64,000 nucleotides of DNA, from the NCBI RefSeq assembly GCF_003334785.1, contig NZ_QOWV01000005.1. The stretch is one strand, 5' to 3'. Of the stretch, positions 3,603 to 37,414 are shown piece after piece (position 1 is the first letter of the stretch; each line of letters starts with the position of its first letter). A program made the translations under genes and the position numbers. Source of the DNA: Escherichia coli (GTDB lineage Bacteria; Pseudomonadota; Gammaproteobacteria; Enterobacterales; Enterobacteriaceae). Below the pieces are notes generated by a model that was not told the DNA's origin, searched no databases, and saw nothing but the letters and a program-made list of their open reading frames with translations.

Positions 3603-3679
<77 letters not shown>

Positions 3680-5021: not shown

Positions 5022-5204
5022 GGGTGAGGGGTAACCTCACATCCTGATTATTGACTAAGTGCGCGTTGTTCATGCCGGATGCGGCGTGAACGCCTTATCC
5101 GGCCTACAAATCATGCAAATCCAAAATATTGCAGGAGTTATGTAGGCCTGATAAGCGTAGCGCATCAGGCATTTATGCGTTTAGGGTGAGGGATAACCTC
5201 GCCC
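5022..5204. repeat. REP/BIME-type palindromic elements flanked by two copies of a GGTGAGGG(G/A)TAACCTC hairpin
   Basis: GCCGGATGCGGCGTGAACGCCTTATCCGGCCTAC and GTAGGCCTGATAAGCGTAGCGCATCAGGC; hairpin copies at 5022-5040 and 5184-5204. Confidence 0.7.
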
Positions 5205-8164: not shown

Positions 8165-8370
8165 AAAAAAAAGCACCGCAATTAGGCGGTGCTACATTAA
8201 TCACTATGGACAGACAGGGTAAATGTACAGGAAGTGAAAAAAGGTAGCTTTGCTACCATGGTCTGAATCGCAGACCAATTGCAAACACAACAACACAACA
8301 TCACAACCGTAAGCCAAAAGTTCACCAGAACACGCATTCCGATAAAACTTTTCGTTCCGGCTCAGGAAGT
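8165..8370 (-). ncRNA. gcvB: GcvB small regulatory RNA
   Basis: Reverse complement begins ACTTCCTGAGCCGGAACG, contains the GU-rich seed GTTGTGATGTTGTGTTGTTGTGTTTGC and ends in a terminator hairpin (GCACCGC…GCGGTGC) plus T8; divergent from gcvA. Confidence 0.9.
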
Positions 8371-9830: not shown

Positions 9831-10923
9831 GGTTGTATTGCTGTGCCGTCCGGGCTTTGAAAAAGAGTGCGCCGCAGAAATTACCGATAAAGCCGGCCAG
9901 CGGGAAATTTTCGGTTTTGCCCGCGTGAAAGAGAATGCGGGTTATGTCATTTATGAATGTTATCAACCTGATGATGGCGATAAGTTAATCCGTGAGCTGC
10001 CGTTCAGTTCATTAATTTTTGCCCGCCAGTGGTTTGTGGTGGGGGAACTCCTGCAGCATTTGCCGCCAGAAGATCGTATTACCCCCATTGTCGGCATGTT
10101 ACAGGGCGTAGTAGAGAAGGGCGGTGAACTGCGTGTTGAAGTTGCCGATACCAACGAAAGCAAAGAGTTACTGAAATTCTGCCGTAAATTTACTGTTCCG
10201 CTACGCGCTGCCTTGCGCGATGCCGGGGTGCTGGCGAACTATGAAACGCCGAAGCGTCCGGTTGTGCATGTATTCTTTATTGCACCAGGCTGCTGCTATA
10301 CCGGTTACTCATACAGCAACAATAATTCGCCGTTCTATATGGGCATTCCGCGCCTGAAATTTCCGGCAGATGCGCCGAGTCGTTCCACGCTCAAACTGGA
10401 AGAGGCATTTCATGTGTTTATTCCTGCGGATGAGTGGGATGAACGCCTGGCGAACGGGATGTGGGCGGTGGATTTAGGCGCTTGCCCTGGCGGCTGGACC
10501 TACCAACTGGTGAAGCGCAACATGTGGGTTTATTCCGTCGACAACGGCCCGATGGCGCAAAGTCTGATGGATACCGGACAGGTGACGTGGCTGCGGGAAG
10601 ACGGTTTCAAATTCCGTCCGACGCGCAGCAATATCTCCTGGATGGTATGCGATATGGTTGAAAAACCGGCGAAAGTTGCGGCATTGATGGCGCAGTGGCT
10701 GGTTAATGGCTGGTGCCGTGAAACCATTTTCAACCTCAAACTGCCGATGAAAAAACGCTACGAAGAAGTGTCACACAATCTGGCGTATATTCAGGCACAG
10801 CTTGATGAACATGGCATAAATGCTCAGATTCAGGCGCGGCAGTTGTATCACGATCGCGAAGAAGTGACGGTGCACGTCCGCCGCATCTGGGCTGCGGTGG
10901 GTGGTCGTCGCGACGAGCGATAA
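9823..10923 (+). CDS. rlmM: 23S rRNA (C2498 2'-O)-methyltransferase RlmM
   Basis: 366 aa; matches RlmM/YgdE from memory. Confidence 0.85.
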
Positions 10924-10966
10924 CAGGCAAGGCCGGGGCGTCGTCTCCGGCCTGCTACCCTTTCCG

Positions 10967-11698
10967 TCAGGCTGTTACCAAAGAAGTTGCAACCTGGCGC
11001 TCATCAGAAATAATGTGCGTTACCTCATCCAGATGCCCGATGCGGGCTTCCCCTGAACGATTAAATTTACTTTTATCAATCAATAACAACGATTGCGCGG
11101 CACGTTTTAATAGCATCGATTTGTAATCAGCGTTGATCGCATTGGAGTCCCACAGTGCGCCGCTGCTATCGATCCCTTCACAAGAAAAAATAAACAGATC
11201 GATTTCCAGCGATTTAAGTTGGGAAATCAGCGAGGGATTGACGTAACAGCCATATTTGCGCTCAAGTGTGCCGCCGGAACTGATCAGTTGAATGCGTTCG
11301 CGTTTACCGAGTTCATGGCAAATCGGATGGCTATTGGTGAAGACCTGAATGTTGATGTCAGGCAACTGGCGTGCCAGATACCAGCAAGTTGAACTGGCGT
11401 CTAAGGCTATCACCATCCCTTCTTCAATCCACGCGAGCGCCTCGCGCGCGATATCTGCTTTATGCGCATAATGGCTTTTCAGCCTGATGTGAAAGGGATC
11501 GCCACTGTCTTGATTTTGACGGTGGATATATTTAGCGCGTCCATGATTGCGCAGAATTTTACCCTGCGTCTGTAATTCATTGAGATCGCGACGAATGGTT
11601 TCTTTACTGACCTTTAGCTGTTCAGAGAGAGCTTCCGTGGTCAGGCTGGTATGGTTCAGCAGCAGGTCGACTATCGCTTGCTGGCGTGCCGCTTTCAT
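10967..11698 (-). CDS. fucR: L-fucose operon activator FucR (DeoR family)
   Basis: ORF 10967..11707; start MKAARQQAIVDLL gives 243 aa; DeoR-type HTH. Confidence 0.85.
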   Translation of the reverse strand: MKAARQQAIVDLLLNHTSLTTEALSEQLKVSKETIRRDLNELQTQGKILRNHGRAKYIHRQNQDSGDPFHIRLKSHYAHKADIAREALAWIEEGMVIALDASSTCWYLARQLPDINIQVFTNSHPICHELGKRERIQLISSGGTLERKYGCYVNPSLISQLKSLEIDLFIFSCEGIDSSGALWDSNAINADYKSMLLKRAAQSLLLIDKSKFNRSGEARIGHLDEVTHIISDERQVATSLVTA

Positions 11699-11755
11699 AT
11701 TTTTCACCCCATCATTCGATAACCGCCCGCGTCATGCGGGCGTACCGGTATGAGA

Positions 11756-12178
11756 TTACGGTGTTACCCCTTTTTTTAAAAGAATATTCCCGTACTTCGC
11801 TCGTTCGCCTGTGATAACGATCGCAAAGGCTTTTTGCGCCCGTTCATAAAACGCAAAACGATTGATGCGGATGATGTCAGGACACGGGGCTTGTAGTGAA
11901 AGCGCATTACGGTAACGTCGTTCTACTTCAGGATCGAGAGTGTCACCTTCTACCGCCGCCATCATCACCAGCGGCGGTGCATAACTGTCCAGTTCAAATA
12001 ACGGGATAATCGCCTGGAGCAAGTCGCTCACCAACAGGCCATCAGCGCGGATCACCTGCGGTCCCATCGAATGGGCGGGAAAGTGAGCATCGGAAAAAAT
12101 AATTTCATCTCCATGTCCCATCTCTGCCAGCACTTTCAATAGTTCGGGAGAAATTAACGGCGAAATTGTTTTCAGCAT
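11756..12178 (-). CDS. fucU: L-fucose mutarotase
   Basis: 140 aa RbsD/FucU family. Confidence 0.9.
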
Positions 12179-12179
12179 T

Positions 12180-13598
12180 TCACACTTCCTCTATAAATTC
12201 AGGTTCAGTTTGCGGGTAGAAATAACGGTACTGATAATGAATCTGTGCGCGGGCTTCTTCCGGGCTGTTAAATTCCCCTACGCCATACCAACCGAACAGC
12301 GCAGCTCCTGCGACGGTCGTTTCGGCGTCGTCGAGAACTTTTACCGGAATATCAAGCATATTGGCTTTAATCTGATTCCACAATGTGTTGCGACTTCCTC
12401 CACCGACTAACAATAATTCAGAGGCCTTAAAGTGCCCGATTTTTTCCAGCATCTGTAGATTGCGCTGTAATTGCGCAGTTAACCCTTCCAGCGCCGCGCG
12501 ATAGAAATGCCCCCGCGTGGTATTAAGCGTCACTCCTTGCCAGCCAGCGTTCTGACACGACAATAAATCACACTGCATTTTTACGCCATCCGCGCCAGGC
12601 GCGATCAGACGAGCTTCTTCAATCAACATTTGCCAGGGTGTTTCAGCCGTCCAGAACAGTTTTCTCACCCATTCCAGCACGCCGGATGCCAGCCATTGCA
12701 TACCTGGGTTATACAACCCTGCCTGGCTATCCAGTTCGCAGGTGGAACCGGCGTACTGACTTAACAGCGAAGTATCAACCTGGGCGCTGCGAACCATTAA
12801 AATTTCCCATGTACCGGAAGAGAGCACGGGTTCATTTTGTTCAGCACCAGCGCCAAAAAGGGCGAACTGGGTATCGTGACCTGCGGAAATCACCGGTATG
12901 CCAACGGGTAAGCCGAGCATTGCTGCGGCGCTGTTCTGTAGCGTACCAATCTGTTCACCCGCTTCCACCAGACGAGGGAAGAGTCGGCGTGGAATACCGG
13001 TGGCTTGTAAAATTTGCGGACTGAAATCGCGTTGCTGGATATCCAGCATCTGGCTGGTTCCGGCCATCGTGATATCAGTAGTGAATTCGCCGGTTAAACG
13101 GTGGTTAATCAGCGACGAAATAAAGAGCCAGGCGTGCGCGCGTTCCAGCAGTTGTGGATGATTTTCTTTCAACCACACCAACTTATATAACGTATTGAAA
13201 CTAAAGGCTCCGACGCCAGAAATAGCCTGCAACCGCTGTGCGGAGATTAACCGTTCAATATTGTCCATAACCGCTGCTGTTCGCGGACATTTCCAGCTAA
13301 TAATCGGATAGAGCAGATTGCCTTGCTTATCTACCAGAGCGCCATCCACACCAAAGGTGGTGACGGCGATACCGCGGATGTGGCATTCAGTCAGTTCACT
13401 ATTGATTTGCCGACAGCAATCAGCAAAGCGTTGCAAAATGGCGTCTAAAGACCACTGGTGCCAGGTGTTGTTTTCCATCGCGATATCGCTGGCATTAGGC
13501 GTTGAGGCGCGGGCAACAATTTTGCCCTGCCGATTAACCGCGATGGCCCTGACATTGGTCGCGCCACAGTCGAGTACCAGGATAACTTCTTGTTTCAT
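12180..13598 (-). CDS. fucK: L-fuculokinase (FGGY family)
   Basis: ORF 12180..13628; ATG at 13598 ([15 protein letters not shown]) is preceded by AGGAG at 5-nt spacing; the longer ORF would run into an intergenic hairpin. Confidence 0.85.
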
Positions 13599-25785: not shown

Positions 25786-26331
25786 GTGGACGATTTGACC
25801 GCACAAGCCCTGAAAGATTTTACTGCACGCTACTGCGATGCGTGGCATGAAGAGCATAAAAGCTGGCCGTTAAGTGAGGAACTGTACGGTGTTCCTTCAC
25901 CGTGCATTATTTCAACTACCGAAGATGCCGTATACTGGCAACCCCAGCCGTTTACCGGGGAACAAAATGTAAACGCGGTTGAACGCGCTTTTGATATTGT
26001 GATACAACCCACAATTCATACCTTTTATACGACTCAGTTTGCCGGGGATATGCACGCGCAGTTTGGCGATATCAAACTGACATTGCTGCAAACCTGGAGT
26101 GAAGACGACTTCCGTCGGGTGCAGGAAAATCTGATTGGTCATCTGGTGACTCAGAAAAGGCTAAAACTGCCGCCCACACTATTTATCGCGACGCTGGAAG
26201 AAGAGTTAGAGGTCATCTCGGTGTGTAATCTCTCCGGTGAAGTGTGCAAAGAGACGCTGGGAACACGTAAACGGACGCATTTAGCCTCAAATCTTGCGGA
26301 ATTCCTTAATCAACTTAAGCCTCTTCTGTAA
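25786..26331 (+). CDS. syd: SecY-interacting protein Syd
   Basis: 181 aa; matches Syd from memory. Confidence 0.85.
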
Positions 26332-26350
26332 TCCAAATACCCCATCTGGT

Positions 26351-26368
26351 TGTGAGAGATCTCTTACA
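26351..26368. promoter_or_regulatory. 18-bp near-perfect palindrome, the UvrY-type upstream activating site of csrB
   Basis: TGTGAGAGATCTCTTACA about 190 bp upstream of the csrB 5' end. Confidence 0.7.
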
Positions 26369-26541
26369 GACTCTGTAGGAGATCGCCAGGAAATAAGCGA
26401 ATACTTAAAAAGATAAGAATCGTTATTTTCATTTAAAATCAAAATGTTGATTGTTAATTCTTAACTTTCATATGAAATTTTCCTTAAGGCATTGTCTGTA
26501 AGCGCCTTGTAAGACTTCGCGAAAAAGACGATTCTATCTTC

Positions 26542-26910
26542 GTCGACAGGGAGTCAGACAACGAAGTGAACATCAGGATGATGACACTTCTGCAGGACAC
26601 ACCAGGATGGTGTTTCAGGGAAAGGCTTCTGGATGAAGCGAAGAGGATGACGCAGGACGCGTTAAAGGACACCTCCAGGATGGAGAATGAGAACCGGTCA
26701 GGATGATTCGGTGGGTCAGGAAGGCCAGGGACACTTCAGGATGAAGTATCACATCGGGGTGGTGTGAGCAGGAAGCAATAGTTCAGGATGAACGATTGGC
26801 CGCAAGGCCAGAGGAAAAGTTGTCAAGGATGAGCAGGGAGCAACAAAAGTAGCTGGAATGCTGCGAAACGAACCGGGAGCGCTGTGAATACAGTGCTCCC
26901 TTTTTTTATT
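26542..26910 (+). ncRNA. csrB: CsrB sRNA (CsrA-sequestering, multiple GGA motifs)
   Basis: About 369 nt with many CAGGATG/AGGGA/AGGA repeats; ends in the terminator CCGGGAGCGCTGTGAATACAGTGCTCCC plus T7; lies between syd and yqcC. Confidence 0.9.
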
Positions 26911-26952
26911 CCTGCTATCCTTCGCGGCAGTTTTTCTTATTGAGGTTGCTTT

Positions 26953-27282
26953 ATGACCACTCATGACCGCGTTCGTCTCCAGTTGCAGGCGCTTGAAGCG
27001 TTACTGCGTGAACATCAGCACTGGCGAAACGATGAACCCCAGCCGCATCAATTTAATAGTACCCAACCGTTCTTTATGGACACCATGGAACCACTGGAGT
27101 GGTTGCAGTGGGTGCTGATCCCGCGAATGCACGATTTGTTAGATAACAAACAGCCGTTACCGGGCGCTTTTGCCGTTGCACCCTATTATGAAATGGCGCT
27201 GGCGACGGACCATCCGCAACGCGCGCTTATTCTGGCTGAGCTGGAAAAACTGGATGCTCTTTTTGCGGATGATGCGAGCTAA
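26953..27282 (+). CDS. yqcC: DUF446 protein YqcC
   Basis: 109 aa; stop overlaps the truC start. Confidence 0.8.
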   Translation: MTTHDRVRLQLQALEALLREHQHWRNDEPQPHQFNSTQPFFMDTMEPLEWLQWVLIPRMHDLLDNKQPLPGAFAVAPYYEMALATDHPQRALILAELEKLDALFADDAS

Positions 27283-28064
27283 TGCTGGAAATACTCTATC
27301 AGGATGAATGGCTGGTTGCGGTAAATAAACCCTCCGGCTGGCTGGTTCACCGCAGCTGGCTGGATCGCGACGAGAAAGTAGTGGTCATGCAAACCGTGCG
27401 TGACCAGATAGGCCAGCATGTTTTTACTGCTCATCGTCTGGACCGACCCACTTCTGGTGTGTTGTTGATGGGATTATCCAGCGAGGCCGGACGGCTGCTG
27501 GCACAACAGTTTGAACAGCACCAAATCCAGAAACGTTACCATGCGATTGTGCGCGGCTGGTTGATGGAAGAAGCGGTGCTGGATTATCCACTGGTGGAAG
27601 AACTGGACAAAATCGCTGATAAATTTGCCCGCGAAGATAAAGGCCCGCAGCCAGCAGTGACGCATTATCGCGGTCTGGCGACCGTAGAAATGCCGGTAGC
27701 GACCGGACGTTACCCGACCACGCGCTACGGCCTGGTGGAACTGGAGCCGAAAACCGGACGCAAACATCAGCTTCGCCGACATCTTGCCCATTTGCGTCAT
27801 CCGATTATTGGCGATAGCAAACATGGCGATTTACGCCAGAATCGCAGCGGTGCTGAGCATTTTGGCCTCCAGCGGTTAATGCTACATGCCAGTCAGTTGT
27901 CATTGACGCATCCTTTTACTGGCGAGCCGCTGACTATTCACGCGGGCCTGGACGACACCTGGATGCAGGCGTTATCACAATTTGGCTGGCGCGGTCTGCT
28001 TCCTGAAAATGAAAGGGTTGAGTTCAGTGCGCCATCGGGTCAGGATGGAGAGATAAGTTCCTAA
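27282..28064 (+). CDS. truC: tRNA pseudouridine(65) synthase
   Basis: 260 aa RluA-family pseudouridine synthase (HRLDRPTSG motif). Confidence 0.9.
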
Positions 28065-28081
28065 TCCAGGGAGAAAACGGT

Positions 28082-28531
28082 ATGGCGGAAATTGGTATTT
28101 TTGTCGGCACCATGTACGGGAATTCACTGTTAGTGGCCGAAGAAGCGGAAGCGATTCTGACCGCGCAGGGCCACAAAGCAACGGTATTTGAAGATCCTGA
28201 ATTAAGCGACTGGCTGCCCTATCAGGATAAGTATGTTCTGGTGGTTACGTCCACGACCGGGCAGGGCGACCTTCCTGATAGCATTGTGCCACTCTTTCAG
28301 GGAATCAAAGATAGTCTGGGCTTCCAGCCGAATCTGCGTTATGGCGTGATTGCGCTCGGCGACAGTAGTTATGTGAATTTCTGCAATGGCGGCAAACAGT
28401 TCGATGCCTTGTTGCAGGAACAGAGCGCTCAGCGGGTTGGCGAAATGCTGTTGATTGACGCCAGTGAGAACCCGGAACCGGAAACGGAATCAAATCCGTG
28501 GGTCGAACAGTGGGGCACGCTGTTGTCCTGA
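28082..28531 (+). CDS. yqcA: Flavodoxin-like protein YqcA
   Basis: 149 aa with flavodoxin FMN-binding signature ([12 protein letters not shown]). Confidence 0.8.
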
Positions 28532-28965
28532 TATGTTCAGCGAGCGGTAAATGTCGTTTTAGCGGTGCTGAATCGAATCTTTTCAGGCAAATGTCAGTAA
28601 AAACTGCTTCATAGCGCGGATTTTTACTGGCGTTTGCCTGGAGTCAAGCGATCCATTTCATACTCTTCTTTATTTCTTCGTTTTAACCCTTCCTTTCTTG
28701 TTCTTGTTTTCATTTCCGTGAAGTGGATTCCACCGTCCAGGGCTAATGCCAAAATCGGGCCTCATTGAACGCATTAATGTTGTGTTGTTGCACGGTGAGC
28801 CGCTATGGCGCGCTTTTTATACTGCTATTGCCAGATATAAACACGCGCCGTATTCGGCGAACGACCTATAAAAACGGCAAAAAACACCCTACGTCACCTC
28901 TGATTTCCTGGCGATGTCGCAGTCCAGAGTGAGCGTGGCTAACGCGAATTTTCAGGAGTGCAACA

Positions 28966-30318
28966 ATGAGTTCTTTAAGTCAGGCTGCGAGCAGTGTGGA
29001 AAAACGCACAAATGCTCGTTACTGGATAGTGGTGATGTTGTTTATCGTCACATCCTTCAACTACGGCGACCGCGCTACGCTCTCTATCGCCGGTTCGGAA
29101 ATGGCCAAAGATATCGGCCTTGATCCCGTGGGAATGGGCTATGTGTTCTCTGCTTTCTCATGGGCTTATGTTATCGGGCAGATCCCTGGTGGCTGGTTGC
29201 TGGACCGTTTTGGTTCAAAACGCGTCTACTTCTGGTCGATCTTTATCTGGTCGATGTTTACCTTGCTGCAAGGCTTCGTCGATATCTTTAGTGGATTCGG
29301 CATTATCGTTGCCCTGTTTACGCTGCGCTTCCTGGTCGGGCTTGCTGAAGCGCCATCTTTCCCCGGCAACAGTCGCATTGTTGCGGCCTGGTTTCCGGCG
29401 CAGGAAAGGGGAACGGCGGTGTCGATTTTTAACTCCGCTCAATACTTCGCAACGGTGATCTTCGCGCCGATTATGGGCTGGCTGACGCATGAAGTGGGCT
29501 GGTCACACGTCTTCTTCTTTATGGGCGGTCTGGGGATTGTCATCAGCTTTATCTGGTTGAAAGTCATCCACGAGCCAAATCAACATCCGGGGGTAAATAA
29601 GAAAGAGCTGGAGTACATCGCCGCGGGTGGTGCGCTGATCAATATGGATCAGCAAAACACCAAAGTTAAAGTGCCGTTCAGCGTGAAGTGGGGGCAGATC
29701 AAACAGCTGCTAGGGTCACGGATGATGATCGGCGTTTATATCGGTCAGTACTGTATCAACGCCCTGACTTACTTCTTTATTACCTGGTTCCCGGTTTATC
29801 TGGTGCAGGCACGCGGGATGTCGATTCTGAAAGCGGGCTTTGTGGCTTCCGTTCCGGCGGTTTGCGGTTTTATCGGCGGTGTGCTGGGTGGGATTATTTC
29901 CGACTGGCTGATGCGCCGCACGGGATCGCTGAACATTGCGCGTAAAACACCGATCGTAATGGGCATGTTGCTGTCGATGGTGATGGTGTTCTGCAACTAC
30001 GTCAACGTTGAGTGGATGATCATCGGCTTTATGGCGCTGGCCTTCTTCGGTAAGGGCATCGGGGCGCTGGGTTGGGCAGTAATGGCAGATACCGCGCCAA
30101 AAGAGATCAGCGGTCTTTCCGGTGGCCTGTTCAACATGTTCGGTAACATTTCTGGCATCGTCACGCCAATCGCAATTGGTTATATCGTTGGCACGACTGG
30201 CTCGTTTAATGGGGCGCTGATTTATGTTGGTGTTCATGCCTTAATCGCGGTACTGAGCTACCTGGTGCTGGTGGGCGATATCAAGCGTATCGAGTTGAAA
30301 CCTGTTGCGGGGCAATAA
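28966..30318 (+). CDS. gudP: D-glucarate/galactarate MFS transporter
   Basis: 450 aa MFS protein, first gene of gudPXD. Confidence 0.9.
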
Positions 30319-30319
30319 G

Positions 30320-31660
30320 ATGGCGACACAATCCAGTCCTGTTATTACTGATATGAAAGTCATTCCGGTGGCCGGGCATGACAGCATGTTGCTTAATATT
30401 GGTGGGGCACATAACGCATATTTCACCCGCAATATTGTGGTACTCACCGATAACGCCGGGCATACCGGCATTGGTGAAGCGCCGGGCGGAGATGTGATTT
30501 ATCAGACGCTTGTCGATGCTATTCCGATGGTTCTGGGCCAGGAAGTTGCGCGACTGAATAAAGTGGTCCAGCAGGTGCATAAAGGTAATCAGGCCGCCGA
30601 TTTTGATACCTTCGGTAAAGGTGCCTGGACCTTTGAATTACGCGTTAACGCCGTGGCGGCGCTGGAAGCCGCTTTGCTTGACCTGCTAGGTAAGGCGCTG
30701 AATGTTCCGGTCTGCGAACTGTTAGGGCCAGGCAAGCAACGCGAGGCTATTACCGTCCTCGGTTATCTGTTTTATATCGGTGATCGGACCAAAACCGATC
30801 TTCCTTATGTGGAAAATACGCCGGGCAACCATGAGTGGTATCAGTTGCGGCATCAGAAAGCAATGAACAGCGAAGCCGTTGTGCGTCTGGCGGAAGCCTC
30901 ACAGGATCGCTACGGCTTTAAAGATTTCAAACTTAAGGGCGGCGTGTTACCTGGCGAGCAAGAAATCGACACTGTTCGTGCATTGAAGAAACGCTTCCCG
31001 GATGCGCGGATTACCGTTGATCCCAACGGTGCATGGCTGCTTGATGAAGCCATTTCTTTATGCAAAGGGCTGAATGATGTTCTTACCTATGCCGAAGATC
31101 CATGCGGCGCAGAACAGGGCTTCTCCGGACGTGAAGTGATGGCGGAATTTCGACGGGCGACCGGCTTGCCCGTCGCGACTAACATGATCGCCACCAACTG
31201 GCGCGAAATGGGTCATGCGGTGATGCTCAATGCGGTAGATATTCCACTTGCCGATCCGCACTTCTGGACGCTTTCCGGTGCAGTCCGTGTGGCGCAGCTT
31301 TGCGACGACTGGGGGCTGACCTGGGGCTGCCATTCTAATAACCATTTCGATATCTCTCTGGCGATGTTTACCCATGTGGGCGCGGCGGCACCGGGTAATC
31401 CTACCGCTATCGATACCCACTGGATTTGGCAGGAGGGCGATTGTCGCCTGACCCAAAATCCGCTGGAGATTAAAAACGGAAAAATTGCCGTTCCTGATGC
31501 GCCCGGTCTGGGCGTGGAACTGGACTGGGAACAGGTACAAAAGGCACATGAGGCCTATAAACGTCTGCCTGGCGGTGCGCGTAACGACGCAGGTCCGATG
31601 CAGTACCTGATCCCCGGCTGGACCTTTGACCGTAAACGTCCCGTTTTCGGCCGTCATTGA
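30320..31660 (+). CDS. gudX: Glucarate dehydratase-related protein (enolase superfamily)
   Basis: ORF from 30305; ATG at 30320 ([22 protein letters not shown]) gives 446 aa; paralog of gudD. Confidence 0.85.
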
Positions 31661-31680
31661 TTCTGAAAAAGGACATAAAT

Positions 31681-33021
31681 ATGAGTTCTCAATTTACGAC
31701 GCCTGTTGTTACTGAAATGCAGGTTATCCCGGTGGCGGGTCATGACAGTATGCTGATGAATCTGAGTGGTGCACACGCACCGTTCTTTACGCGTAATATT
31801 GTGATTATCAAAGATAATTCTGGTCACACTGGCGTAGGGGAAATTCCCGGCGGCGAGAAAATCCGTAAAACGCTGGAAGATGCGATTCCGCTGGTGGTAG
31901 GTAAAACGCTGGGTGAATACAAAAACGTTCTGACGCTGGTGCGTAATACTTTTGCCGATCGTGATGCTGGTGGGCGCGGTTTGCAGACATTTGACCTACG
32001 TACCACTATTCATGTAGTTACCGGGATAGAAGCGGCAATGCTGGATCTGCTGGGGCAGCATCTGGGGGTAAACGTGGCATCGCTGCTGGGCGATGGTCAA
32101 CAGCGTAGCGAAGTCGAAATGCTCGGTTATCTGTTCTTCGTCGGTAATCGCAAAGCCACGCCGCTGCCGTATCAAAGCCAGCCGGATGACTCATGCGACT
32201 GGTATCGCCTGCGTCATGAAGAAGCGATGACGCCGGATGCGGTGGTGCGCCTGGCGGAAGCGGCATATGAAAAATATGGCTTCAACGATTTCAAACTGAA
32301 GGGCGGTGTACTGGCCGGGGAAGAAGAGGCCGAGTCTATTGTGGCACTGGCGCAACGCTTCCCGCAGGCGCGTATTACGCTCGATCCTAACGGTGCCTGG
32401 TCGCTGAACGAAGCGATTAAAATCGGTAAATACCTGAAAGGTTCGCTGGCTTATGCAGAAGATCCGTGTGGTGCGGAGCAAGGTTTCTCCGGGCGTGAAG
32501 TGATGGCAGAGTTCCGTCGCGCGACAGGTCTACCGACTGCAACCAATATGATCGCCACCGACTGGCGGCAAATGGGCCATACGCTCTCCCTGCAATCCGT
32601 TGATATCCCGCTGGCGGATCCGCATTTCTGGACAATGCAAGGTTCGGTACGTGTGGCGCAAATGTGCCATGAATTTGGCCTGACCTGGGGTTCACACTCT
32701 AACAACCACTTCGATATTTCCCTGGCGATGTTTACCCATGTTGCCGCCGCTGCACCGGGTAAAATTACTGCTATTGATACGCACTGGATTTGGCAGGAAG
32801 GCAATCAGCGCCTGACCAAAGAACCGTTTGAGATCAAAGGCGGGCTGGTACAGGTGCCAGAAAAACCGGGGCTGGGTGTAGAAATCGATATGGATCAAGT
32901 GATGAAAGCCCATGAGCTGTATCAGAAACACGGGCTTGGCGCGCGTGACGATGCGATGGGAATGCAGTATCTGATTCCTGGCTGGACGTTCGATAACAAG
33001 CGCCCGTGCATGGTGCGTTAA
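31681..33021 (+). CDS. gudD: D-glucarate dehydratase
   Basis: ORF from 31657; ATG at 31681 ([17 protein letters not shown]) gives 446 aa. Confidence 0.9.
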
Positions 33022-33144
33022 GACAGAAAACCAAAACCGGCTCTATCTGGAGCCGGTTTGAGACTGATGCTAAACGCAAAATAGCCTGTTGTGCTATGTA
33101 TCAGGTCTACATCATTTTTTAATTCATTGAATTTAATTGGTTTT

Positions 33145-33178
33145 GTAGGCCGGATAAGGCGTTAACGCCGCATCCGGC
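33145..33178. repeat. REP element between convergent gudD and barA
   Basis: GTAGGCCGGATAAGGCGTTAACGCCGCATCCGGC. Confidence 0.7.
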
Positions 33179-33252
33179 ATAAACACAGGCACTTTGTCAC
33201 CAATCTGAAACCAGCGTCATAAAAAGCCGATTGCTACTCGACAAGACATCCA

Positions 33253-36009
33253 TTACCCGAGAATTTTGCTGGCTTCGCGCGCGACATTATCCATCTCGTC
33301 CAACAGTTCCAGCAGCTCCGGTTCCAAATCTTCTTCTTTAGTACCGCTACGTAGCTGTTGTTCGATCAGTTGGCAGAGATTCTTCATACGTGGCACACCG
33401 CTATAGCCGCAACTGCCATGCAGTTTATGAATCAAATCAACCAGGCCTTCCGGGTTTTCTCCAACCAGCTGTTCCTCAACTTTGTTGCGAACTTCAGGCA
33501 GGAAATCGAGTAACATTTGCAGCATATCGCGCGCTAAATCGGTTTTTCCTGCTGCCTGGCGTAGTGCCAGTTGCCAGTCGAGGGTCGCATTCGGGTTCAC
33601 CACAATTTCGTTGACTTCGGGCGTCACGACGCGAGAGGAAATACCGCTGCCAGGCTTGTAGCGCAACAACAAATTATGCAATCGCTCTTCTTCAATCGGT
33701 TTCGCCAGATAATCGCTCATCCCTGCGCCAAGCAGCTTCTCTTTTTGCCCGGCCATTGCATGCGCCGTTACCGCGATAACCGGCGTTTGTTGCTGATGCG
33801 GGAGTTGGTGGATGAGTTCGCAGGCCCGAATGCCATCCATGTCCGGCATTTGAATATCCATTAAGATCAAATCGAACGGCATCTGTTTCGCCCGTTCAAC
33901 CGCCTGATGCCCGCTATCGCAAAGTTCCACATGTTGCACCATATCTTCCAGCAATGCGCCGATAAGTTTCAGGTTAGCGGGGTTGTCATCAACCGCCATG
34001 ACTGTCATTGCCAGCTTACTTTCATCGGTTACAGGCAAAAGCGTGTTTTGTTTGTGATGACAAAATTCCGTCAGGGCAGGCAACAGGCGTGTAGGTGTTA
34101 ATGGTTTCAGCAGACACGCGCCGATACCATCTTGCTTGAGTTTTTCAGCATTGACTTGTGCATGGCAAGGAAGTGCCAGCATCAGGAAATCGGTCATCGA
34201 TACCGCTTTCGCTAATCGCTCATGTTGCATTGTTAGCGGCTCGCGGAAGGTCACCGCGATGCCTAACAACATCATGTCGTAATGCGCGGGAGGCAGCGCG
34301 GAGAACGTTGGGCTATAAACCACTTCCAGCGGCGTTTCACTTAAAATATCCAGCGTGCATTGCGCTGCTGCGGAGTTTGGTTCGACATAGGCCAGGCGCT
34401 TACCTGCGAGGCACTGGGTGGATGGCCCTTCGATAATAATGTTCGGGTTCAGATCGAGATTAATGTGGAACCAGAAAGTTGAACCGCGATTCGGCTGGCT
34501 ATGGAACGAAATATCGCCGCCCATTTCATTAACCAGTTTTTGTGTAATCACCAGCCCCAGCCCGGTGCCACCATGACGGCGGGAAATACTGGCATCAGCC
34601 TGTCGGAAGGCCTGGAATAAGCGCGATTGATCGCGTTCAGGAATACCAATGCCGGTATCCCGAATCTGCACTTCAATCTGCACTTTGGTATTACTCAGCG
34701 CACGTTTTTCTACCAGAATATCAATGTTGCCATTCTCGGTGAATTTAATTGCATTCCCCACCAGGTTAGTGATGATTTGCTGTAATCGCAGCGGGTCGCC
34801 GATCACGTTATCAGGCACGTCGCTTTTAATATTGAGCGTCAGTTCTAACCCTTTATCGTGAGAAGAATGTGCCAGCAGAGTAACGACTTCATCCAGCGTG
34901 CTGCGTAGTGGGAATGGAATACTTTCCAGAATCAGCTTACCTGCTTCCAGTTTCGAGAAGTCGAGAACATCATTAATAATTGCCAGCAAATTATTTGCCG
35001 AACGTTCAATCGTATTCAGGTGATCGCGCTGCGTTGGTGTTAATTCTGTTTTCAGCGTCAGGCGGGTAAAGCCAATAACACCATTCAGTGGTGTACGCAG
35101 CTCGTGTGACATATTTGCCAGAAACTCGGATTTAATACGCGCCGCTTCCTGGGCGCGCTTTTTCGCCAGATCTAACTCAACGTTCTGAATTTCCATCTGC
35201 TCCAGCGTTTCACGCAGATCGGACGTCGCCTGGTCGATATTGTGCTGCATCTCTTCGTGATAAGCAGCCAGCGACATTGCCATCGAGTTGATACCGTTTT
35301 TCAGCATATCCAGCTCGCCGAGCATAAATCCTTCCACCCGGCTGTCGAGTTGCCCGCGACGGATGCGGTCGACGGTATTCACCATGTTGCGAATCGGACC
35401 GGTTACATCGCGCATTAAGCGCCAGCCAAAAATAAGCGCAATACCGATACAAAACAGCATCATCACGCTGGAAATAAAGATCTCTTTATATTGCTGCAAG
35501 CGAACCGATTTAAGATCCAGCTCCAGCGCAATATATCCCAACATATTTTGACTATTTTTGGCATCGCTACTGGGCGATTCGTCGGGGGAGTAACTCTCAG
35601 AAATAATCGGCGTGCGGAGGATCATAATATCGCCGTCACGAGTGACAGTGAGCTGGCGAGGAAACGGCACGTTGCTGCCGAGCTGCATTGATGAGGGATC
35701 AAGATGAAAATTGGAGGTGACAAAGAGTCGGTTATTTTCATCATAAACCGAAATCGCGCGAACAATATCGGAATGGCGACGATGCAGTACGCTTATTAAC
35801 TGACCGATAGATTCGCGATTTTGCAGGCTCATGCCATATTCAGTAGAAACTGCAAGCGGCTCAATAATGCTGGCACCGGCATCTTCCAGTTGACGCTGCA
35901 AGTCGTTATAGCGATGCACGACGAAAAAGATACTCAGCAATAAACCAATAAGGACGGTCGGTGCCAGGATCAGAATCATCATGCGTGCGCGCAGGCTGTA
36001 GTTGGTCAT
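33253..36009 (-). CDS. barA: Hybrid sensor histidine kinase BarA
   Basis: 918 aa with HAMP, HisKA (SHELRTP), HATPase, receiver and HPt domains. Confidence 0.95.
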
Positions 36010-36065
36010 GGAGTTCCGTTATGGGACAATTAAGGTCACACTGTTAAATTGAGAAAGTCTCGCCA

Positions 36066-37367
36066 ATGGCGCAATTCTACTCTGCAAAACGACGCACGAC
36101 GACGCGTCAGATCATAACCGTTTCAGTCAACGACCTCGACTCTTTTGGTCAGGGCGTGGCGCGACATAACGGCAAAACGCTATTTATCCCCGGATTATTG
36201 CCGCAGGAAAACGCGGAAGTTACTGTTACTGAAGATAAAAAACAGTATGCCCGCGCTAAAGTCGTACGCCGGTTAAGCGATAGCCCGGAACGCGAAACGC
36301 CACGCTGTCCTCATTTTGGCGTATGCGGTGGCTGTCAGCAACAACACGCCAGCGTGGATTTACAGCAGCGAAGCAAAAGTGCGGCACTCGCCCGATTAAT
36401 GAAACACGATGTCTCTGAAGTGATCGCCGATGTTCCCTGGGGCTATCGCCGTCGCGCGCGTTTAAGTCTGAACTACTTACCGAAAACACAGCAACTTCAG
36501 ATGGGGTTTCGCAAAGCGGGCTCCAGTGACATTGTCGACGTCAAACAATGCCCCATTTTAGCGCCCCAACTTGAAGCATTGCTGCCCAAAGTCAGGGCAT
36601 GTCTGGGCAGCTTACAAGCTATGCGCCATCTTGGTCATGTTGAACTGGTACAGGCAACCAGCGGCACGCTGATGATTTTGCGCCATACCGCACCGCTAAG
36701 TTCGGCAGATCGCGAAAAACTGGAACGCTTTTCGCATTCTGAAGGCCTGGATCTGTATCTCGCCCCCGATAGTGAGATACTCGAAACCGTCTCTGGTGAG
36801 ATGCCCTGGTATGACTCAAACGGGTTGCGCTTAACTTTTAGCCCGCGCGATTTTATTCAGGTCAATGCGGGTGTGAACCAAAAAATGGTAGCGCGTGCGT
36901 TGGAATGGCTGGATGTGCAACCTGAAGATCGCGTACTGGATCTGTTCTGCGGTATGGGCAACTTTACACTGCCATTGGCGACACAAGCTGCCAGTGTGGT
37001 CGGTGTAGAAGGTGTTCCGGCGCTGGTGGAAAAAGGCCAGCAGAATGCGCGTCTTAATGGCTTACAGAATGTGACGTTTTATCACGAAAATCTTGAAGAA
37101 GATGTCACAAAGCAGCCGTGGGCGAAAAACGGCTTCGATAAAGTGTTGCTGGACCCGGCGCGAGCAGGTGCCGCAGGTGTTATGCAGCAAATTATAAAAC
37201 TGGAACCTATTCGTATAGTTTATGTATCCTGTAACCCTGCAACGCTGGCTCGGGATAGCGAAGCGTTATTAAAAGCAGGATATACCATTGCGCGACTGGC
37301 GATGCTGGATATGTTCCCACACACGGGACATCTGGAATCGATGGTACTTTTCTCGCGCGTTAAATAG
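36066..37367 (+). CDS. rlmD: 23S rRNA (U1939-C5)-methyltransferase RlmD
   Basis: 433 aa; TRAM domain, Fe-S cysteines ([11 protein letters not shown]) and SAM methyltransferase domain. Confidence 0.9.
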
Positions 37368-37414
37368 TTGCGATTTGCCGATTTCGGCAGGTCTGGTCCC
37401 TAAAGGAGAGGACG

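Follow-up and report, generated by a model that had tools for sequence, protein, structure and literature searches.

The 64-kb window, which is the whole stretch of DNA analysed here, is part of the E. coli chromosome, and the 11 kb that were compared (positions 26000-37000) match sequenced E. coli genomes with 100% identity. The small RNA gene csrB lies on the plus strand at 26542..26910 (369 nt). Its conserved left neighbour is syd, which encodes the SecY-interacting protein (25786..26331, plus strand; NCBIfam NF003439, 286.7 bits, and RefSeq annotation of an identical genome). On its other side, csrB is followed on the same strand by yqcC (DUF446), truC (tRNA pseudouridine-65 synthase), and yqcA (flavodoxin) at 26953..28531 and by the gudP-gudX-gudD genes for a glucarate transporter and dehydratases at 28966..33021, both groups being assigned by NCBIfam and RefSeq. 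The sensor kinase gene barA occupies 33253..36009 on the minus strand, and rlmD and relA, its widely conserved upstream neighbours, are found at 36066..39649 on the plus strand (NCBIfam). The initial annotation placed barA 6.3 kb from csrB on the opposite strand, which agrees with the 6,343 bp measured between the 3′ ends of csrB (26910) and barA (33253). The two genes are convergent, with six unrelated genes between them, and no mobility genes were seen in this interval by NCBIfam and RefSeq annotation. The convergent gudD/barA intergenic region carries a palindrome detected by repeat search at 33146..33181, which we take to be REP-like because of its GCCGGATAAGGCG-type motif.

The Rfam model RF00018 (CsrB) covers positions 26551-26910 of the plus strand with a score of 380.4 bits, compared to a gathering score of 71, and is matched over model positions 1-356 of 356. 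The gene start at 26542 corresponds to the transcription start of Zere et al., as obtained from the inverted-repeat centre at 26359.5 plus 182.5. The coordinates of csrB in the initial annotation are in agreement with both the Rfam match and this published start. GGA motifs occur 22 times in csrB, compared to 12.2 ± 2.8 expected from 2000 shuffles, and there are nine matches to CAGGA[ACT]G. The gene is closed by its own intrinsic terminator, for which a terminator scan gave a stem at 26875-26900 and a T-run. The score, the full-length match, and the excess of GGA motifs together place the gene in the CsrB/RsmB family. Sequestration of CsrA by E. coli csrB is known from the literature (introduction of Zere et al. 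2015, PMC4682653).

An 18-bp inverted repeat, TGTGAGAGATCTCTTACA, is located at 26351..26368, and is the binding site of phosphorylated UvrY (UvrY/GacA box). Measured from the start of csrB, the centre of this box is about 183 bp (-183/-182) and its 5′ edge about 191 bp upstream, so that the palindromic UvrY-type box proposed earlier at about 190 bp upstream is indeed present. The form TGTRAG-N6-CTYACA is matched exactly at 26351-26368 with its centre at -182.5. TGTGAGAGATCTCTTACA has no other match in the 64 kb, even when three mismatches are allowed, and gave no match in 100 shuffles. Binding of UvrY was mapped to this box by ChIP-exo and DNase I footprinting, in which the 18-nt inverted repeat centred at -183/-182 was footprinted by UvrY-P, and the experiments of Zere et al. 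(2015, PMC4682653) showed that phosphorylated UvrY binds the box and that this binding depends on BarA. The box in the window is identical in sequence and position to the published DNase I footprint (PMC4682653). It also forms an island of conservation in a 12-genus alignment, and in about 50 loci its centre precedes csrB by about 181-206 bp (mostly by 181-184 bp).

Other elements of the control region are conserved in the same alignment. A third half-site, TGTAGGAGA, was found by repeat search and scan at 26374..26382 on the plus strand, 5 bp downstream of the box. A second palindrome, which is imperfect, spans 26358-26384 and is made up of this half-site and the right arm of the box. The half-site is conserved and was already described by Zere et al. 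(PMC4682653). A regular-expression match to the IHF consensus, AATCAAAATGTTG (WATCAANNNNTTR), is present at 26437..26449 (plus strand), centred near -99, with a conserved TCAA....TTA core. Since a putative IHF site has been placed between two UvrY crosslink sites and csrB activation needs IHF (Zere et al., PMC4682653), the AATCAAAATGTTG match is probably that site. In the core promoter region at 26506..26537 (plus strand), CTTGTAAGAC (-36 to -27) and GATTCTAT (-12 to -5) are conserved columns; judged by conservation only, they may be the promoter elements of csrB. A scan for consensus promoters missed the csrB promoter. The core promoter region shares positions with the stretch from -56 to +25 in which UvrY was crosslinked close to the promoter (Zere et al., PMC4682653).

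The product of barA, a protein of 918 amino acids, matches the NCBIfam equivalog NF008318 over residues 1-917 with 1623.9 bits against a cut-off of 890, and the matching open reading frame is annotated by RefSeq as barA in an E. coli genome of 100% identity. Pfam domains of 100%-identical proteins give the architecture sCache_4-HAMP-HisKA-HATPase_c-Response_reg-Hpt. The phospho-sites H302, D718, and H861 are invariant in an alignment of 32 orthologues, and their sequence contexts, IHKLHG among them, were confirmed in the BarA of the window. Profile, architecture, and phospho-residues are all those predicted for a tripartite hybrid sensor kinase of the BarA/GacS type. The statement that uvrY lies outside the window was borne out by a tblastn search of the 64 kb, in which the receiver domain of BarA itself was the only one. 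Moreover, ten open reading frames of 191-268 amino acids gave no response-regulator match in NCBIfam; six belong to other families and four have no match.

The linkage was surveyed in relatives by using the N-terminal 297 residues of BarA (from an 8-sequence alignment) as a query, which avoids paralogous hybrid kinases. The best 120 BarA homologues were all from E. coli or Salmonella; the survey was made on the best 80 species-representative loci, all from Enterobacteriaceae plus three from Erwiniaceae. The flank covered downstream of the barA stop was 8.1 kb. The frame syd-[box]-csrB-yqcC-truC-yqcA, variable island, barA-rlmD-relA is present wherever the flank is long enough, namely in 57 of the 80 loci. 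The other 23 are too short or have an insert exceeding the 8.1-kb flank, and none contradicts the frame; nine large-insert loci end before csrB, one of which, Mixta, was settled by a separate look-up via GudP. The linked frame is likewise found in Salmonella and, within Erwiniaceae, in Tatumella and Mixta. Every linked locus is convergent, with a spacing between csrB and barA of 1,643 to 10,724 bp (median 7.4 kb), and the housekeeping genes yqcC-truC-yqcA, which are unrelated to the circuit, always stand 3′ of csrB in the linked arrangement, as seen from tblastn synteny. The variation lies in the island between yqcA and barA. The gud genes are missing in E. albertii, Yokenella, Pluralibacter, RIT691, Buttiauxella warmboldiae, and Tatumella, and csrB is then only ~1.7 kb from barA in E. 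albertii, Yokenella, and Tatumella; the island is enlarged with garK, garL, garR, and garD in Salmonella, Mixta, and Winslowiella. In at least 25 genera of the two families the junction has survived, even though DNA was inserted repeatedly at this very position. In the linked taxa, the whole 16-kb block ppnN-queF-syd-csrB-yqcC-truC-yqcA//barA-rlmD-relA is collinear, and therefore barA-csrB is conserved no better than barA-queF.

Outgroups were taken singly from representatives of 50%-identity clusters, with Pectobacteriaceae, Hafniaceae, Budviciaceae, and Serratia outside the sample. No RNA of the Csr/Rsm family was found within about 10 kb in the barA flanks of Yersinia, Photorhabdus, Photobacterium, Moritella, one Aeromonadaceae genome, and Shewanella, so that a linkage extending beyond close relatives did not hold; it is seen only in Enterobacteriaceae and Erwiniaceae. 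The unlinked outgroups all encode a full-length BarA orthologue and retain rlmD-relA-mazG-pyrG-eno upstream of barA, but its downstream neighbours differ. Both rlmD and relA were called beside barA in Tatumella, Photorhabdus, Photobacterium, Moritella, Aeromonadaceae, Gallaecimonas, and Shewanella; in Y. kristensenii, relA is by barA but there is no full-length rlmD call. The downstream order barA|dgt-mtnN-btuF-erpA-hemL is common to Y. kristensenii and Photorhabdus, with degQ before dgt in Yersinia, and barA|pdxJ-recO-era-rnc-lepB-lepA-rseCBA-rpoE is common to Photobacterium, Moritella, and Aeromonadaceae. The downstream neighbours in Shewanella differ from both arrangements.

The closeness of barA and csrB is very probably a gene order inherited after one rearrangement, at an otherwise ordinary, characterised E. 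coli csrB locus with barA. This rearrangement would have put syd-csrB-yqcC-truC-yqcA against the 3′ end of barA-rlmD-relA once, in a common ancestor of Enterobacteriaceae and Erwiniaceae, a node that we infer from few outgroups. The junction would have been inherited vertically ever since, while doubling as an insertion point for glucarate and galactarate catabolic islands. Alternatively, barA and csrB could form a horizontally transferable regulatory module whose linkage is kept by co-acquisition, and the variable gud/gar island in the interval does show a recombinationally active site. This reading is hardly credible, given that the region is core, being in one piece in 5,412 of the 5,426 complete E. 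coli genomes with a single match overall on a plasmid, that eno-pyrG-mazG-relA-rlmD upstream of barA is conserved to Shewanella and Vibrionaceae, which speaks for vertical descent, that the required response regulator lies outside the block, and that the interval has no mobility genes that could be seen. A horizontal barA-csrB module was rejected on the grounds that the region is core, chromosomal in essentially all matches, and devoid of mobility genes.

In a genome of 4.64 Mb, the named pair would fall within 7 kb by chance with a probability of ~0.3%, and any pair among six Csr-system loci with one of ~4%; both are post hoc estimates. A prior chance of ~0.3% for a pair at 6-7 kb is a counterpoint to plain inheritance, and the survival of the junction in at least 25 genera despite insertions could be read as weak retention.

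The sensor-RNA linkage had been presented as if it were significant in itself, which the data do not bear out: the genes are convergent, six unrelated genes separate them, the spacer measures anywhere from 1.6 to 10.7 kb depending on the species, and UvrY acts as an intermediary. Nor does the locus look like a functional co-localised cluster. Adjacency and co-transcription are not seen, in view of the convergent orientation, the six genes between, and the csrB terminator; the linkage does not go beyond vertical synteny, being limited to Enterobacteriaceae and Erwiniaceae among the sampled taxa; and the cognate response regulator is not in the 64-kb window. Selection for proximity could still be imagined if transertion of BarA tethered the region to the inner membrane, thereby raising the local amount of UvrY-P at the csrB promoter and speeding the response. 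The low prior chance of such closeness, ~0.3%, and the retention of the junction in every sampled member of Enterobacteriaceae and Erwiniaceae, sometimes with only ~1.7 kb between the genes, would fit such an effect, but we consider it quite improbable. The linkage is missing in Yersinia, Photorhabdus, Vibrionaceae, Moritella, Aeromonadaceae, and Shewanella, all with a full-length BarA orthologue. Furthermore, V. cholerae, P. aeruginosa, and others run the VarS/VarA or GacS/GacA circuit with sRNA genes beside other genes (PMC1488887), none of these Csr/Rsm sRNA genes being described beside the sensor gene. Inserts of 4.5 to 9 kb between barA and csrB are tolerated, csrC, which UvrY targets just as directly, is not linked to barA, and UvrY is a small diffusible protein; no report of such a proximity effect was found in the open-access literature. 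The stronger claim, that selection has kept the proximity in Enterobacteriaceae and Erwiniaceae because membrane-tethered synthesis of BarA exposes the csrB promoter to a zone rich in UvrY-P, as a spatial shortcut in a relay whose regulator gene is elsewhere, is less probable still. If proximity did alter signalling kinetics, this would be a rare case of chromosome position tuning a phosphorelay; nothing here points that way, and nothing indicates a function of the barA-csrB proximity.

A significance of the physical link between sensor and RNA is not supported, as BarA never touches csrB DNA and the signal passes via cytoplasmic UvrY, which is encoded elsewhere. According to the literature, BarA autophosphorylates and then relays the phosphoryl group through H302, D718, and H861 to UvrY, whose gene is about 0.9 Mb away, beside uvrC. 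In this published scheme, UvrY-P occupies the 18-bp box centred at -183 relative to csrB, and a bend made by IHF in the AT-rich spacer allows UvrY-P to meet RNA polymerase. The resulting csrB RNA, with its 22 GGA motifs, then sequesters CsrA.

Compared to the E. coli K-12 csrB locus and the BarA-UvrY-CsrB/C circuit (Suzuki et al. 2002; Zere et al. 2015, PMC4682653), the window has the same csrB, TGTGAGAGATCTCTTACA, TGTAGGAGA half-site, IHF-type site, and BarA, with no difference in sequence or organisation. Genes, RNA, binding site, and circuit all belong to the textbook knowledge of E. coli. An explicit mention of the 6.3-kb barA-csrB linkage was not found in the open-access literature, and the addition made here is descriptive only: the barA-csrB neighbourhood is a derived trait of Enterobacteriaceae and Erwiniaceae, the spacer within it is variable and holds glucarate/galactarate islands, and the neighbourhood is missing in the other sampled gammaproteobacteria with BarA orthologues. 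Kulkarni et al. (2006, PMC1488887) described the same order, in which csrB follows syd immediately and the UvrY/GacA box separates the two, in a paper whose scope did not include barA; they found this neighbourhood in E. coli, Salmonella, Shigella, Yersinia, Photorhabdus, and Pectobacterium. The csrB-syd link is older and wider, whereas the csrB-barA link is narrower and derived, in Enterobacteriaceae and Erwiniaceae. The second strong UvrY target, csrC, adjoins yihA/yihI and is not near barA (Kulkarni table, PMC1488887). The GacS/GacA-RsmY/Z system of Pseudomonas and the VarS/VarA-CsrB/C/D system of Vibrio follow the same logic, in which a hybrid kinase acts on a FixJ/NarL-type regulator that binds a palindromic upstream box of a GGA-rich sponge RNA. 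To our knowledge, none of the sRNA genes of these two systems lies beside gacS or varS; positions of the sensor genes do not appear in the list of Kulkarni et al. The sRNA genes have other neighbours, with rsmZ between fdxA and rpoS, rsmY between dnr and PA0528, and V. cholerae csrB1 between VC0882 and VC0883 (PMC1488887).

The two genes under consideration lie in an 11-kb segment (26000-37000) that matches several complete E. coli chromosomes with 100% identity; of the 5,426 complete E. coli genomes, 5,412 contain it as a single piece. According to the RefSeq annotation of an identical genome and NCBIfam equivalogs, the order is ppnN (-), queF (-), and syd (+), then csrB (+), the plus-strand genes yqcC, truC, yqcA, gudP, gudX, and gudD, followed by barA (-) and, beyond it, rlmD, relA, mazE, and mazF (all +). 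The csrB gene is unannotated in that RefSeq record and was placed by Rfam, which detects CsrB at 26551-26910 (+) and scores it at 380 bits, the gathering score being 71. The csrB start proposed in the initial annotation, 26542, corresponds to the transcription start adopted in published work; the RNA carries 22 GGA motifs, compared to 12.2 +/- 2.8 expected from composition, and is closed by a strong intrinsic terminator. BarA gives a full-length match to the NCBIfam BarA equivalog (1,624 bits versus a cut-off of 890) and shows the tripartite architecture, in which H302, D718, and H861 are invariant. The csrB and barA genes converge, with 6,343 bp between their 3′ ends, in agreement with the opposite strands and 6.3 kb originally described. 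No receiver domain besides BarA's own was found within the window, so that uvrY is located elsewhere, as had been proposed; it adjoins uvrC, about 0.9 Mb away.

Other features were also observed in the window. A REP-like palindrome (TAGGCCGGATAAGGCGTTA / TAACGCCGCATCCGGCATA) lies at 33146-33181 between the convergent gudD and barA. Rfam matches above the gathering score were obtained for GcvB sRNA (199 bits, 8165-8370, -), ES036/CssrF (46.5 bits, 5107-5149, +), and sok antitoxin RNA (113 bits, 63610-63767, +), the last of which implies a hok/sok-type locus at the right edge. ARAGORN and Rfam both show a single tRNA-Met(CAT) gene at 3603-3679 (-), a position at which E. coli K-12 has three tandem initiator tRNA genes (metZ, metW, and metV); this may be due to a strain difference in copy number or to a collapsed assembly.

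The UvrY-type box recognized upstream of csrB is the palindrome TGTGAGAGATCTCTTACA at 26351-26368, which begins 20 bp beyond the stop codon of syd, has no second copy in the 64 kb of the window when up to three mismatches are allowed, and has no match in shuffled sequences. Its centre lies 182.5 bp upstream of 26542. An identical 18-nt inverted repeat, "centered at -183/-182 in E. coli", was footprinted with DNase I using phosphorylated UvrY and showed barA-dependent ChIP-exo crosslinking (Zere et al. 2015, PMC4682653). The additional TGTAGGAGA described in that study 5 bp downstream of the repeat is present at 26374-26382 and, together with the repeat's right arm, makes up a second imperfect palindrome. 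An IHF consensus match, AATCAAAATGTTG at 26437-26449 (near -99 of csrB), is probably the putative IHF site that the same study placed between the two UvrY crosslink regions of csrB. In a 12-genus alignment, conserved islands are formed by the box, the third half-site, a TCAA....TTA core, CTTGTAAGAC, and GATTCTAT, and the remainder of the spacer is divergent. CTTGTAAGAC, at 26506-26515 (-36 to -27 of csrB), is kept in most of these genera and resembles a UvrY half-site (TGTAAGA); it lies within the promoter-proximal region crosslinked by UvrY in ChIP-exo, for which no footprint was obtained in vitro (Zere et al. 2015).

The proposed synteny survey was performed with a BarA-specific N-terminal alignment against one genome per species (GTDB representatives). 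The best 80 loci, which come from more than 25 genera of Enterobacteriaceae plus Winslowiella and Mixta, were typed by nhmmer for csrB, tblastn with twelve E. coli reference proteins, and a regular expression for the box. The order barA, variable stretch, yqcA-truC-yqcC-csrB-box-syd was found in 57 of these 80 loci; csrB was unseen in 23, each with a short stored flank or an insert exceeding the 8.1 kb available, and wherever the sequence reached gud or yqcA genes, none of the 80 had other downstream neighbours. Between the barA stop and csrB there are 1,643 to 10,724 bp (median 7.4 kb), and in loci matching the strict expression the box centre lies 181-206 bp upstream of csrB, mostly 181-184 bp. 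Salmonella has the common frame with one added glycerate kinase gene and a barA-csrB distance of 7.4 kb, and in Mixta a 9-kb garD-gudPXD-garLRK island widens the distance to 10.7 kb. E. albertii, Yokenella, Pluralibacter, isolate RIT691, and Tatumella lack the gud genes, and the distance is only about 1.7 kb in the three of these taxa checked by Rfam (E. albertii, Yokenella, and Tatumella).

The stretch from yqcA to the barA 3′ end (28531-33253) is itself a variable sugar-acid catabolism island, whose states were compared across nine loci. It is empty in E. albertii, Yokenella, Pluralibacter, and Tatumella, contains gudD alone in Kluyvera, Shimwellia, and Mangrovibacter yixingensis, gudPXD in E. 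coli, and added garK, garL, garR, or garD in Salmonella, Mixta, and Winslowiella. Carboxylates are reportedly sensed by BarA, and the carboxylate-sugar genes next to it may be a coincidence worth looking at.

Outgroups were drawn from representatives of BarA clusters formed at 50% identity and comprised Yersinia, Photorhabdus, Photobacterium, Moritella, an Aeromonadaceae genome, and Shewanella; Gallaecimonas and one other contig, with too little downstream sequence, were left out of the linkage call. In every outgroup sampled, relA-mazG-pyrG-eno lies upstream of barA, and rlmD lies between barA and relA in all except Yersinia kristensenii. On the other side, barA is followed by degQ-dgt-mtnN-btuF...erpA-clcA-hemL in Y. 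kristensenii, by dgt-mtnN-btuF-erpA...hemL in Photorhabdus, and by (acpS)-pdxJ-recO-era-rnc-lepB-lepA-rseCBA-rpoE in Photobacterium leiognathi, Moritella, and an Aeromonadaceae genome; Shewanella sediminis is unlike the other outgroups downstream. Within about 10 kb of barA, Rfam detected no RNA of the Csr/Rsm family in Yersinia, Photorhabdus, Photobacterium, Moritella, the Aeromonadaceae genome, or Shewanella. The linkage thus holds in Enterobacteriaceae and Erwiniaceae but is absent in the outgroups sampled beyond these two families.

In a comparison of six loci (barA at about 10001-12800), conservation of the upstream side extends from E. coli as far as Shewanella and Vibrionaceae, and the downstream side is lineage-specific. 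The neighbourhood on the 5′ side of barA is old and stable, and the 3′ end, because what follows it varies by lineage, is a recurrent synteny breakpoint. The Y. kristensenii locus (L083, 9087-10001) has a gap of about 900 bp between relA and barA, with a 46-aa ORF and no full-length rlmD called; rlmD may be a pseudogene here or have been deleted. The Photorhabdus orthologues P0127 and P0363 are only 775-786 aa, compared to about 918 aa elsewhere, and align to E. coli BarA in two stretches with Hpt still among the Pfam hits; an internal deletion in the linker may explain this.

Since the outgroups are unlinked, the linked state is derived. It probably arose by rearrangement in an ancestor shared by Enterobacteriaceae and Erwiniaceae, reportedly sister families in the Enterobacterales phylogeny (Adeolu et al. 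2016), and the junction has since been passed down with the whole ppnN-to-relA block. Inherited in this way, barA-csrB is conserved no better than barA-queF, and the repeated gain or loss of sugar-acid catabolic genes at the junction indicates that the spacing is unconstrained. By a post hoc estimate, the prior chance of lying this close is about 0.3% for barA and csrB themselves and about 4% if any two of six Csr loci are counted; both figures are compatible with one fortuitous rearrangement. A selected spatial effect, by which a membrane-tethered barA locus lifts local UvrY-P at csrB, is very improbable. There is no mechanistic reason for the linkage because BarA acts on UvrY protein, not on DNA; the physical linkage of sensor and RNA output is correct as fact, but the function it implied is unsupported.

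The other strong UvrY target, csrC, adjoins yihA/yihI (PMC4682653, PMC1488887). In the flanking genes of Csr/Rsm sRNAs tabulated for many species by Kulkarni et al. 2006 (PMC1488887), barA is unmentioned and csrB tends to remain near syd. Collectively, the genes, the RNA, and the binding site described here are all already known.
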